Shown here: in pieces, positions 15,624-60,346 of the stretch
Numbering within the stretch: position 1 is the first letter of the stretch
How the letters are laid out: each line of letters opens with the position of its first letter
Origin: Cytophagales bacterium
Lineage (GTDB): Bacteria; Bacteroidota; Bacteroidia; Cytophagales; JAAEPT01
DNA: 64,000 nt
Assembly (NCBI GenBank): GCA_043770215.1
Contig: JAYVIQ010000106.1
Location: forward strand, 13,729-77,728
Direction: 5' to 3'
The notes under the pieces: model-generated
Database searches by the model: none
Seen by the model: only the letters and a program-made list of their open reading frames with translations
Told to the model about the DNA's origin: nothing
Made by a program: the position numbers and the translations under genes

Positions 15624-15667
15624 ATATTTTCAAGTAGAAGACTTAGATATAAGATCAATTATTTATT

Positions 15668-15787
15668 TGGATATCTGCAATGATAACAGTTCCTATCATT
15701 TTTTGCGAAAAGCATAGATCCAGACCCGCTAGGGTTTCTCCCAAAATCACTAATCAATTCTACCACTGGTACAATTACGGATGTTCA
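15668..15787 (+). mobile_element. MITE-like repeat, copy 1 (internally deleted, ~120 bp)
   Basis: Aligns by eye to 25270-25438 at both ends (TTGGATATCTGCAATGATAACAG.. and ..CCCAAAATCACTAATCAATTC..ACGGATGTTCA). Lacks the central ~49 bp. Confidence 0.7.
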
Positions 15788-15993
15788 CAATAACTCATGT
15801 AATTTCAACTACTTTCAACTGAAATCAATACTTTTTTTAATTCATAAAATTTTATTATACAACTTTTTATTTGAATTTGTATATTGTACAATAAACGTAA
15901 TTGTGTTTCGTTTTAAAATAACAAATTGTTTAAGAAAGGTCTAAAACAACCATTAATAAACTTTGTAATTTCTAATAAATAGAATCCGAAAAT

Positions 15994-18285: not shown

Positions 18286-18977
18286 TGCTCTTTAAAACAA
18301 GGGGCTTAGTACTTAGTTACATAAAATACAAGGAAACTTCTATTGTAGTAAAAATATTTACAGATTACTTTGGTGTACAATCATATATTGTAAATGGTGT
18401 TAGAAGTAAAAAATCCCATAGTAAAATAGCTCTTTTCCAATCCCTCACATTATTGGATCTTGTTGTTTACAAAAACGACAAAAGAGATTTACAAAGGATT
18501 TCTGAGATTAAATGCTTGGCTCCGTACCAAAACATACCTTTTGATCATAACAAAAGTGCTGTTGCCATGTTTTTGGCCGAAATTTTATCTAAATCTCTTT
18601 CTACAGAAGAAAATCAGTTTGAATTATTTAATTTCCTACAAAACTCATTACTTCATTTTGACTTAGATATTAGTAATAATAGGAATAATTTTCATCTCTA
18701 CTTTTGCCTGCAACTGGCACATTTTTATGGACTATCTGCAGATACCAAAGAGATAATAAAGCAAGTAGAAAATTGGCTTAAGTGCACAAAAAGTGAGCTA
18801 GATATTTGTATAGCTGCTTTGAAAAAATTAGAAAACGGAAGTATTGGCACAGAAACAGCGCTTAGTAGTATAGAGAGAAAACTTAGTTTGTATGCTATAA
18901 CTATGTTCTTACAACGCAACATACCTGCATTGCAGCAACTAAAATCTTTAGATGTTATTAAAAGCGTATACCAATAA
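18285..18977 (+). CDS. recO: DNA repair protein RecO
   Basis: MLFKTRGLVLSYIKYKETSIVVKIFT..GVQSYIVNGVRS is an N-terminal OB fold typical of RecO. The start overlaps the upstream stop by 1 nt (TAATG). Confidence 0.85.
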   Translation: MLFKTRGLVLSYIKYKETSIVVKIFTDYFGVQSYIVNGVRSKKSHSKIALFQSLTLLDLVVYKNDKRDLQRISEIKCLAPYQNIPFDHNKSAVAMFLAEILSKSLSTEENQFELFNFLQNSLLHFDLDISNNRNNFHLYFCLQLAHFYGLSADTKEIIKQVENWLKCTKSELDICIAALKKLENGSIGTETALSSIERKLSLYAITMFLQRNIPALQQLKSLDVIKSVYQ

Positions 18978-19317: not shown

Positions 19318-19621
19318 ATTTTATAGAGTTATATTTAATCTAATTTAAACTAATATATTGTAGGCTAGTAAAAACACACAATATATTTTAATAATATTTA
19401 AACGCTATTTTTTTTCCTTTATTCACTTCCAAATTAGTCTATCCTTCATTTTTTTCATTAATCACAAAATGAGAAACAAATAAAAACACATTATTATTTT
19501 CAACATATAATTATTATTTTTTATACAATTTTCAATTTAAAATTGTATTATAGTGGTCTATTAAACAGTGCTTTTCATAAATTTTAAGTATTTTAGAGCC
19601 TTTATATAAAGAATAAAACCC

Positions 19622-23873: not shown

Positions 23874-25061
23874 TTAGGAATAAAAATAATACAAGTCTAA
23901 CCCCAAAACTTTAAATGTTTGCATTTCTTCATTTGTCCATAAAATAGATTTTACTTTGTCTTTGTTGAAGTCTACACCAGTCAATTTTCTTAAAATTCCC
24001 CTTTGAGTTTCTTTTCTAATCATATTTTCTAACAATTCTTCTAGCATAAAAAGTTCATTTCTTTTAGTTCCATTTTTGGATAGAGCTAGATATTGAAAAA
24101 GTGCGGGGATTACAAGAACATGACCTTGGCTTGTTGCCAAAATATCTCTATACAATGGTCCATAAATGGATTGCATGCCTTCTAAAAATTTAGGGACAAT
24201 AACATAGATCAGATCTTCGGCAAGGTCATTTTTTTTATGTTTCAAAAGTACACTCATTAATCCAAATGCAACCTCAAAAGATTCTATTTTTTGTTTTTTT
24301 AGGTATGTTACTCTTTCTTTTAATTGTTTTGAATCATTATTTATGAGTAATAAACAAATTATTTTTGTGCTGTTTTCATAGCTGATCTTATACCCATATT
24401 TTTTGGAGAATAGTTCTAATTGCCTGTATGCTGTTAGGCTTTCTTTATATCTTTTCACTTCAAATAACTGCACTGCTTTTTTTTCTGTTTGTTTCAAAAG
24501 CGCGTCTTCGAGTTCTTTTATTAATGTGTAATTTCCTGAAAAAAGAGCTATGCTATCTAAGTTTTTAGAAGCTTCTACAAAGTTTTCTTTTTTGGTGTAT
24601 AGTATTGTTTTGCTTTTTAAATGCTGATTTATTTTTGCCAATTGCTCTATACTAGTTATGTTTTGGGGTTTAAAATGACTTAGGGCAAGTATGGCTATAA
24701 ACATAAGAATCATAACAAAAGAAACTTTTATGTATACTTTTTGAAATTCAGTGAATACAATTTTCACCTCTTTTTTTCTTGTCCACTGATGATTCTTTTT
24801 ATTGGGTGGTTGGTTAGGGGTGTTGTATGCGGATATTGGTTGTTGAGTACCATATTTCAGAAACGCATCATACTTTTGTTTAGCAATAGGATTATTTAAA
24901 ACTTGGTAAGCATTATTCAACTCTTTAAATGCGTTTTCAAAAAGAGCAGATCCTCCATTTTTGTCTGGATGATATTTCATAGCCAATACCCTAAATGCTT
25001 TCTGTACATCTTTTGCATCAGAAAAAATAGGTAAGCCTAATGTTTGGTAATGATTGCTCAC
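23874..25061 (-). CDS. J-domain (DnaJ-like) membrane protein
   Basis: N-terminal J domain (YQTLGLP..AFRVLAMKYHPDKNGG), one TM (VSFVMILMFIAILAL) and an uncharacterised helical C-terminus. Confidence 0.75.
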   Translation of the reverse strand: MSNHYQTLGLPIFSDAKDVQKAFRVLAMKYHPDKNGGSALFENAFKELNNAYQVLNNPIAKQKYDAFLKYGTQQPISAYNTPNQPPNKKNHQWTRKKEVKIVFTEFQKVYIKVSFVMILMFIAILALSHFKPQNITSIEQLAKINQHLKSKTILYTKKENFVEASKNLDSIALFSGNYTLIKELEDALLKQTEKKAVQLFEVKRYKESLTAYRQLELFSKKYGYKISYENSTKIICLLLINNDSKQLKERVTYLKKQKIESFEVAFGLMSVLLKHKKNDLAEDLIYVIVPKFLEGMQSIYGPLYRDILATSQGHVLVIPALFQYLALSKNGTKRNELFMLEELLENMIRKETQRGILRKLTGVDFNKDKVKSILWTNEEMQTFKVLGLDLYYFYS

Positions 25062-25269
25062 TTTGAGTAACTATTAATTATATTTTTTTCATTTATTCTA
25101 AAAATTCATTTTTTTTGAAACTATATTTCTGAATTTAGTGGTGAATTTATATAGATTCTAGAATTTTTATATATGTGTGTTCTACCAATTATAGAGTATT
25201 TTATTACCGAAGTTGGCATAGTATAAATTTAATTAAAATTTTAATAATCAATAGAATATAAAATATTTT

Positions 25270-25438
25270 GTGAATATCCGCAATGATACCAGCACCTATT
25301 ATTTTTTTGCGAAAAGGATCAAAGCGGAGCTCTTTTTTGCTTTTTCAGCAAAAAAAGCGAGAGCGTAGAGCCTGACCCGATAGGGTTTCGTCCAAAATCA
25401 CTAATCAATTCCACTACTAGTACAATAACGGATATTCA
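25270..25438 (+). mobile_element. MITE-like repeat, copy 2 (longest, intact ends)
   Basis: Starts (G)TGAATATCCG and ends CGGATATTCA, a perfect 10-bp TIR. The 11-mer TAAAATATTTT occurs on both flanks (25259-25269, 25439-25449). Central hairpin CTTTTTTGC-N7-GCAAAAAAG. Confidence 0.75.
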
Positions 25439-25865
25439 TAAAATATTTTTAACTTTTTTATTTTACAAACAAAGTGAACTTTTATATACACTTTTCTGCT
25501 AGAAGTTTTTTTTAATACCTGCGGAAGAAGTTACAAATTATAACCGAATGTACTTTTATCAAATTAAGATATACTGTTTTGTTAAAACTGTATAAAAAGT
25601 GGGTTTTCGAGCTATTTTTTTTGTAAAAATCCAACGTTGGGGCTTTAGTGATGTAGCACGCTAAACCGATAATTTTACTTTAAATTCATAACTTCTTCTA
25701 TTCATTTAGAATACAATATCCAATTGGAATCATTTTAGTATCCGGAGATCTGTTTGGGCTAACAATCTCTGTACGTATAGGAAAAAAATTCTAAAAGATT
25801 TATGTCTTTAAGTATTTGTAAAATTTGAGCTTCTATGTCTTTAGCTAGGTAAGTAAATGAGTAAA

Positions 25866-26213
25866 TTATTTTTTAACGCTCATATGAAGGACATAATTTA
25901 AAATAAGTTTTTCATCATCTGGACTAAGCTTTGGAGAAGATGCATTCACTTTTTTCACCATTCTAGGAACAATGCGTCTCCATTCAGATTCCGGTTCGCT
26001 TTCTGGGTTTTTTAGTCCATGACATGAGCCACAGTTTTGGGTATACAACAATTTCCCTTCAAGTATTTCAGTAGTTAGGGTATCTAAACTGAGTTGTTCT
26101 GCCACAACTTCTTTTTCATCTGCCGTATTTTTTTTGGCGTTTAACGTTGTTTTTTTTGCAGCGCAAGCACAACAAACAAGAGTTGCTATAATGATTGTTA
26201 TTTTTTTTAACAT
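25866..26213 (-). CDS. Small c-type cytochrome lipoprotein
   Basis: Lipobox-like N-terminus (LVCCACAAKK) and a single heme motif CGSCH. Confidence 0.7.
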   Translation of the reverse strand: MLKKITIIIATLVCCACAAKKTTLNAKKNTADEKEVVAEQLSLDTLTTEILEGKLLYTQNCGSCHGLKNPESEPESEWRRIVPRMVKKVNASSPKLSPDDEKLILNYVLHMSVKK

Positions 26214-59884: not shown

Positions 59885-60107
59885 TTTGTAGAAAATGCTT
59901 TTTTATAACAATTTGTAAAGATAGGGATTGTGTTGGAGTTGCGAAATTATTTGAATAGGTAATTTCAAAACAGATTTGGAGGTATATCATTAAGATCTAG
60001 CCCTTTTATTTGATTTTAAAAAACGCAGGTAATTTAATATTGGCATATTTCATTTTACTGCATTATTTTAATATTGTACAATATCCATTTCCTTTTAAAA
60101 AAAATTG

Positions 60108-60272
60108 TGAATATCTGGTCTTTTAAAACTAGCGGAATTCATTAGTGATTTTGGGCGAAACCCTATCGGGTCAGGCTCTATGTCTTGCATTCTTTACTGA
60201 AAAAGCAAAAAAGAGTTCCGCTTAGATCCTTTTCACAAAAAAATAGGCGCTGGTATCATTGCGAATATCCAC
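60108..60272 (-). mobile_element. MITE-like repeat, copy 3 (inverted orientation, ~165 bp)
   Basis: The reverse complement aligns along its length to 25270-25438 (GTGGATATTCGCAATGATACCAGCGCCTA...GAGCCTGACCCGATAGGGTTTCGCCCAAAATCACTAAT...CCAGATATTCA). Confidence 0.7.
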
Positions 60273-60346
60273 TTTTTTTTGGTTAAAGAACTTTCAGAAT
60301 TAATTCTAATTGCAAATGTAAAATTGTAAAAATTAAATTTAATACT

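Follow-up and report, generated by a model that had tools for sequence, protein, structure and literature searches.

A short GC-rich segment, lying in a spacer of 804 bp between two minus-strand genes, raises the question of whether it is a piece of mobile DNA or a gene for a structured RNA. The spacer belongs to a 64-kb stretch of DNA (the whole of which is called the window here), whose closest named PorZ and SulP homologues are 35-62% identical and come from Cytophagales-type genera. The evidence below indicates that the segment, copy B in Table 1, is very probably a MITE, namely a 172-bp non-coding DNA transposon with imperfect inverted repeats of about 24 bp, which has been mobile recently and carries a Flavo-1 unit as cargo.

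Ends, copies and empty sites of the element

The first-pass annotation of the spacer had pointed to a perfect 10-bp inverted repeat, an 11-mer just outside both ends, a central hairpin and a GC-rich interior, and each of these was found in copy B: the inverted repeat TGAATATCCG/CGGATATTCA at 25271-25280 and 25429-25438, the 11-mer TAAAATATTTT at 25259-25269 and 25439-25449, the T6/A6-rich hairpin CTTTTTTGC-N7-GCAAAAAAG at 25332-25356, and a GC content of 39% in the element versus 23.7% in the remainder of the spacer. It had also warned that a single copy could be due to chance, and the shuffle counts bear this out. Perfect 10-bp inverted repeats 100-260 bp apart were observed 35 times in the window versus 42 times expected from Markov shuffles, and 100 shuffled windows yielded only 3 cases in which such a repeat was also flanked by an 8-bp direct repeat. 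Copy B on its own is thus weak evidence, and what carries the weight for a MITE is the presence of other copies and of empty sites.

Alignment of seven sequences from five loci gave consensus termini TGTG...CACA, with a T before GTG in four of the five loci and an A after the terminal CAC (CAT in copy B) in all five. The 12-bp consensus ends, TGTGAATATCCG/CGGATATTCACA, run on into imperfect inverted repeats of ~24 bp whose complementarity has two 2-nt interruptions; when the right arm is reverse-complemented, it agrees with the left arm at 17 of 24 positions in copy B and at 20 of 24 in copy A. Within the window, the element ends are the sole sites of the left-arm 12-mer when up to 2 mismatches are allowed. 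These arms are longer than the 13-bp inverted repeat that had been considered earlier together with a 6-bp duplication, and the duplication itself is best read as 8 bp. The direct repeat underlying the 11-bp duplication favoured at first does exist, but its length was revised to 8 bp, since GTG...CAC is preceded by T and followed by A in nearly all copies and the net length of copy E fits 7-8 bp. Lengths of 11, 8 or 6 bp had all seemed possible because the flank of copy B, AAAATATTTT, is its own reverse complement; the best reading is a perfect duplication of 8 bp, in a palindromic target that allows 6 to 11 bp.

Table 1. Coordinates of the element copies, of the parts of copy B and of the neighbouring features (window positions unless a contig is given)
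Feature	Position	Strand	Details
Element copy A	15666-15789	+	124 bp; old deletion derivative without the Flavo-1 P2 hairpin
Unoccupied copy D site	19436-19463		AGTCTATCCTT / CATTTTTTTCATTAATC; related strain carries copy D there
DnaJ-domain gene	23874-25061	-	One border of the copy B spacer
Left target-site duplication of copy B (putative)	25261-25268		AAATATTT; identical 8-mer at 25441-25448
Element copy B	25269-25440	+	172 bp, full length; ends TGT...ATA; window's strain only
Left terminal inverted repeat, copy B	25269-25292	+	TGTGAATATCCGCAATGATACCAG; conserved at left end of all copies
Rfam Flavo-1 (RF01705) match	25304-25381	+	49.8 bits versus gathering score of 42; E = 9e-8, whole window
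Predicted full Flavo-1 three-way-junction unit	25309-25394	+	Layout as in 26 distinct viral-contig units
Predicted closing stem P1	25309-25314 with 25386-25391		GCGAAA with TTTCGT
Predicted P2, long irregular hairpin	25315-25373		Apical stem-loop 25332-25356
Predicted P3, small hairpin	25376-25385		CCC-GATA-GGG
CCA tail	25392-25394
Right terminal inverted repeat, copy B	25417-25440	+	CTAGTACAATAACGGATATTCATA
Right target-site duplication of copy B (putative)	25441-25448		AAATATTT
Small cytochrome-c-like gene	25866-26213	-	Other border of the copy B spacer
Element copy C	60106-60273	-	168 bp; old, decayed; inner right arm degraded
Element copy D	L059:13449-13589		141 bp; window without copy at 19446/19447
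Element copy E	L060:20467-20638	-	172 bp, full length; window's strain (L063) without it
Element copy F	End of contig L063		Partial sixth copy; contig stops inside

Exact-protein look-ups retrieved contigs of the same strain (L001, L004 and L063) and of a second strain (L059, L060 and L098), the latter including the NCBI MAG GCA_043777955.1 and showing 96-97% nucleotide identity over ~50 kb. An empty-site check had been proposed beforehand, and L059 (from this MAG, 96% identical to the window), which aligns through the whole copy B spacer, lacks exactly 180 bp (172 + 8) and keeps one copy of the target. A single, diverged ATAAGATTTTTTT in L059 (site sequence AATCAATAGAATATAAGATTTTTTTAAC) stands in place of AAATATTT-element-AAATATTT in the window (...ATAAAATATTT-(TGTGAATATCC...GGATATTCATA)-AAATATTTTTAAC, with the element in inner parentheses). 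Copies D and E are reciprocal cases, being present in the related strain and missing from the window's strain. For copy E the net difference is 179 bp (172 + 7), and the base missing from an expected 180 is explained by a 1-nt difference in the adjacent A run; its flanks TTATTTTA and TTTAGTTA are matched by a single TTAAGTTA at the empty site, and its duplication is degenerate (5 of 8 positions agree between its two copies), consistent with 7-8 bp. At the copy D site the window lacks 144 bp (141 + 3), the junction being blurred by T runs, and the gain of 3 rather than 8 bp would reflect either T-run slippage or a small footprint. The unoccupied allele of this site reads CCTTCATTTTTTTC, and the occupied allele (L059:13430-13610) has plain T runs on both sides. 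A clean duplication is found in copy B only: in copy A the flanks ATTATTTA and ATAACTCA agree at 5 of 8 positions (6 of 8 in L059), that of copy E is degenerate, that of copy D ambiguous, and copy C has none.

With three strain-specific copies (B, D and E), the family has been active since the two 96-97% identical strains split. This evidence for movement comes from ~100 kb of the two strains, in which the polarity of B, D and E (insertion or precise loss) has no outgroup to root it; in the next-closest relatives (~60% PorZ identity) the spacer differs and contains no copies. The empty site for copy B and the reciprocal copies D and E support the MITE reading that the first-pass annotation had put forward.

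The two further copies in the window that had been reported earlier were located as A and C (Table 1), giving six loci in ~85 kb from the two strains: A, B and C in the window, D in L059, E in L060 and a partial F in L063, whose contig ends inside the copy, as happens with dispersed repeats. Profile searches found no fourth copy in the 64-kb window and no copy in a 6.9-kb leftward extension of the related strain. All copies (124-172 bp) are intergenic and occur in either orientation, which is arbitrary with respect to the neighbouring genes. Copies A and C each occupy one and the same site in the two strains, and these fixed copies diverge faster than the genome, with identities between the strains of 87.1% for A (versus ~96% for the genome) and 92.9% for C (versus 96-97%). 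The strain-specific copies are closest to each other (B-E 91.8%, B-D 88.5% and D-E 87.1%), whereas the fixed copies are 72-83% identical to the remaining copies, as expected from an active source lineage. A selfish element that is still fed by an active source would leave just this combination of fast-decaying fixed copies and strain-specific copies that resemble each other. In copies A and D the Flavo-1 hairpin was lost through different deletions, the one in D lying between two AAAGCG repeats, and the arms were kept.

Copy C has no duplication; in place of a direct repeat its flanks are an A7 run at one end and a T8 run at the other (60090-60105 and 60274-60290), an arrangement that would be compatible with insertion into an A/T palindrome or with two inverted copies having rearranged with each other. 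Separately, the palindrome ATTGTACAAT occurs twice in the window (15883-15892 and 60073-60082) versus 0.28 occurrences expected, one of them near copy A and the other near copy C, at distances of up to about 100 bp, and a similar palindrome, TTATACAATTTTCAATTTAAAATTGTATAA, lies near the copy D site; it may be an operator-like intergenic motif or a hint on target choice. The DnaJ/cytochrome spacer also holds a block, TTGGGGCTTTAGTGATGTAGCACGCTAAACCGA (window 25636-25672), which is identical in both strains within otherwise diverging sequence and matched no Rfam family.

The longest ORF in the element has 32 aa, and this absence of coding capacity supports its earlier description as non-autonomous; no autonomous partner was found in the sampled loci. 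The window was said to contain no transposase, and indeed its ORFs of at least 110 aa gave no transposase-family match, nor did the called genes of the overlapping loci. Neither the window and the fetched loci nor viral contigs contained a longer element bounded by these ends. Hits with the conserved stretch GGGTTT..CAAAATCACTAAT, 4 in a 185,579-species genome collection and 45 in JGI metagenomes, were all chance matches by BLAST. A BLAST search of the element against plasmids and phages returned nothing, and neither did a degenerate 24-mer of the arms against viral contigs.

Flavo-1 inside the element and elsewhere

Flavo-1 was defined computationally in 2010 without an assigned function (Weinberg et al. 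2010, PMC2864571) and is counted among the most abundant Rfam sRNA families; in F. psychrophilum transcriptomics, Flavo-1 hits are sense, antisense or outside transcribed regions (PMC9723704). Among five loci of the element only copy B passes the Rfam cutoff (Table 1), with copy C scoring 24.1 bits, copy E below the cutoff, and A and D devoid of the hairpin. Even with relaxed settings, Rfam detected no other Flavo-1 in the window, and four related loci gave no match at the cutoff.

Comparison of the flanked alignment in the 2010 supplement with 26 distinct viral-contig units uncovered conserved features beyond the Rfam model, namely a closing stem, a small hairpin and a CCA-like tail. The closing stem, GCGUK/MACGC, has 5 bp, and its K-M pair is U/A in 17 units, G/C in 9 and discordant in none; the small hairpin, variable in sequence, comes after AGCCCG, and the tail is CCA in 18 of the 26 viral units. 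Judged from these alignments, Flavo-1 extends beyond the Rfam model and appears to form a three-way junction, an architecture not described in the papers searched. Adding the covarying closing stem, which the Rfam model omits, should improve Flavo-1 detection.

The same architecture was recognised in the element (Table 1). In a joint alignment of 14 viral Flavo-1 units with copies B, C and E (alignment A6), P1 was paired in 97.6% and the base of P2 in 100%. The window-lineage copies show double changes at four pairs (7-95, 8-94, 10-72 and 15-67): pair 10-72 is GC in 14 sequences and AU in 3, the AU coming from the window-lineage copies, and pair 15-67 is UA in 11, AU in 3 and CG in 3, the CG again coming from these copies. 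Covariation in this alignment was 0.272 versus 0.112 in shuffled alignments, with 0 of 500 shuffles as high. Because of this pairing, these double changes and this covariation, the interior of the MITE can be taken, on comparative grounds, as a genuine and complete Flavo-1 unit. A tRNA or tmRNA origin of the CCA-tailed unit was considered and dropped, given that ARAGORN finds none. Promoter and terminator scans of the spacer gave nothing above shuffles, the sigma-70 model used being ill-suited to Bacteroidota.

Flavo-1 units are also found in other Bacteroidota chromosomes, in conjugative plasmids, in ssDNA microviruses and in tailed-phage contigs, in either orientation. The viral units are without arms of the kind described here, and some lie so close to a stop codon (4-28 nt) that arms would not fit. 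In six IMG/VR phage contigs (L070, L071, L082, L083, L092 and L093) Flavo-1 is carried beside a gene for a protein of ~550 aa, 4-28 nt past its stop codon and on the opposite strand. These proteins are 23-41% identical to each other, and two of the six show a weak similarity to the terminase large subunit (PHROG 2, E = 8e-8 and 7e-6). That the position is kept across such divergence suggests a function tied to the end of this gene.

In Microviridae-like ssDNA phage contigs of 4-6 kb (L066, L077, L081, L085 and L095), Flavo-1 accompanies a Phage_F capsid protein gene in L066 and L095 and a DNA-ejection pilot protein gene in L077, while L081 and L085 were grouped with L077 by near-identical units and flanks alone. 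With respect to the capsid gene, the unit lies in sense orientation in L095 and in antisense orientation in L066; in L077 it is antisense to the pilot gene. The idea that Flavo-1 is a complementary-strand origin of ssDNA replicons was set aside as speculative, its orientation to genes varying among the microvirus contigs. Two Bacteroides plasmid copies from the 2010 alignment are on conjugative plasmids (L100, pBF9343 733-806, and L101, p5482 18657-18733), one of them between a recombinase gene and a gene for an ArdC-like ssDNA-binding antirestriction protein, the other directly after traO and a DUF4425 gene. Finally, in two contigs of 9-10 kb from isolate genomes (L064:342-600 and L088:323-600), Flavo-1 lies ~330 nt from the contig start and is followed by an A-rich iteron-like stretch (AAAACTAAAATCAAAACTAAAACTAAAC...), which could be a replication origin.

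It is conceivable, although we consider it rather doubtful, that Flavo-1 as a whole is a structured three-way-junction module of Bacteroidota mobile DNA and not a conventional small-RNA gene family, its carriers being MITEs, conjugative plasmids, ssDNA microviruses and tailed phages. Such a module might act on its carriers, for instance by marking gene ends with a strand-specific signal in DNA or RNA, and the element in the window would then be the first case in which Flavo-1 movement is directly visible. The location of Flavo-1 beside a conserved phage gene, on plasmids and in microviruses offers concrete settings for function tests.

Transposition and competing explanations

To account for the MITE, we propose that a transposase encoded elsewhere in the genome would bind both arms and either cut the element out or copy it; insertion into AT-rich intergenic DNA would proceed by staggered cuts ~8 bp apart, whose repair would leave the flanking duplication. 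The MITE most likely picked up a Flavo-1 unit and may now be spreading it. Viral Flavo-1 units are without arms. In the simplest history, a Flavo-1 unit became enclosed by IS-type ends in this lineage.

An improbable alternative is that Flavo-1 itself is mobile by a non-DDE route (single-strand or RNA-mediated), the arms being a lineage-specific extension. It would agree with the occurrence of units in either orientation on chromosomes, conjugative plasmids, ssDNA microviruses and tailed-phage contigs, with F. psychrophilum hits that are sense, antisense or untranscribed (PMC9723704), and with the failure to find a transposase for the window element. However, inverted repeats and a duplication of fixed length are the signature of staggered-cut DDE transposition, the viral units have no arms even where they lie 4-28 nt from a stop codon, and the shared position of the unit beside the divergent ~550-aa proteins of six phages looks like conserved function and unlike random insertion.

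A very improbable alternative is that the copies represent a multi-copy gene for a structured small RNA, closed by the long terminal stem, with the differences between strains arising by deletion. The core does belong to an Rfam sRNA family, and the 185-nt region is more stably folded than its shuffles on either strand (z = -4.3 and -5.8). A hand count of transitions in the outer 12-bp stem found that 7 of 8 produce G-T and not A-C on the sense strand; a few sites also seem compensated when orthologues are compared, and one wobble has returned to C-G in an ortholog. Nevertheless, templated mutation in quasi-palindromes can mimic such compensation, and copy F would add two A-C mismatches if its unsequenced right arm equals the consensus. 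Formal counts over 47 pairs in seven sequences gave pairing of the arms in 86.0% of cells versus 86.1% in shuffles, and a covariation of 0.064 versus 0.063; the terminal inverted repeats, with 85.7% of cells paired over the 7 sequences, are conserved as sequence and show no covariation. Compensatory changes at orthologous sites, which the first-pass annotation had named as the sign of a conserved structured RNA, were looked for and not seen in the arms. The arms thus behave as transposon ends and not as a selected RNA stem, their pairing being no better than that of shuffles. RNA-level selection had been entertained as the source of a left-arm hairpin (AATGATA/TATYATT) and of the surplus of wobbles in the outer stem; both readings were dropped when formal counts equalled shuffles. 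In addition, the deletions would have to remove the element and exactly one flanking repeat copy, the orthologous copies diverge faster than the genome average, two copies without the Flavo-1 hairpin still keep their arms, and orientation to neighbouring genes is arbitrary.

It is barely credible that a full-length IS at each site independently left a copy behind by internal deletion, with no mobilisation in short form, for although MITEs do originate in this way and the ends resemble IS ends, all copies share their interior (the Flavo-1 unit and the same spacers), which points to a single short progenitor that was multiplied later, and no copy keeps a transposase fragment.

The MITE reading implies, from three strain-specific copies in ~85 kb, that the element is still moving in an uncultured Bacteroidota population, where it could be used as a strain marker and is a possible source of regulatory change. 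At least one lineage very probably spreads Flavo-1 by transposition, which calls for caution before every Rfam hit is called an sRNA gene.

Comparison with known systems

Like REP/BIME sequences and the palindrome-associated derivatives of IS200/IS605, the element is short, structured, multi-copy and intergenic, with strong hairpins. To our knowledge, those sequences have no terminal inverted repeats and no target duplication and go in beside a short fixed motif, and a REP or IS200/IS605-derived palindromic element was rejected here since inverted repeats and a flanking duplication are present.

The TGT...ACA termini recall insertion sequences of the IS481, IS3 and IS21 type, whose transposases have the integrase-fold DDE architecture. 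TG...CA termini are a property of these three families, and the duplications of IS21 measure 4-8 bp. In the IS481 family duplications are 2-15 bp, mostly 6 bp, with TGT...ACA ends in related elements, and IS3 members have duplications of 3-5 bp (PMC10045372). The ~8-bp duplication of the element falls inside the IS481 range and outside the IS3 range. An IS481-like, IS21-like or other integrase-fold DDE transposase is a lead only, drawn from the TG...CA-type ends and the duplication length alone; other candidates for the parent are families that duplicate 8 bp, for example the IS1016 group of IS1595.

With Flavo-1 (RF01705) the element shares the GGAU..AAGCGG / AGCG.A.AGCC internal loops, a variable apical hairpin and a Bacteroidota host; unlike Flavo-1 elsewhere, the motif in the window sits inside a transposon with inverted-repeat arms.

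The closest parallel is with bacterial MITEs, to which the Correia elements of Neisseria belong: like them, the element is a short intergenic sequence with no coding capacity, smaller than 300 bp in a class that spans about 50-500 bp; it ends in inverted repeats, is bordered by a duplication, and is multi-copy with a presence that varies between close strains. Other examples are MITECca01 of Cardinium, an IS982-derived MITE (PMC9769881), and the catalogued MITEs of Bacteroidota (PMC11602168). It differs from known bacterial MITEs in that its sequence family is new, with no match in the collections searched, and in that its interior is a separately conserved structured motif instead of IS-derived filler. 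The element is thus a new MITE family, found in one lineage only among the collections scanned, which is ordinary in kind and unusual in its cargo.
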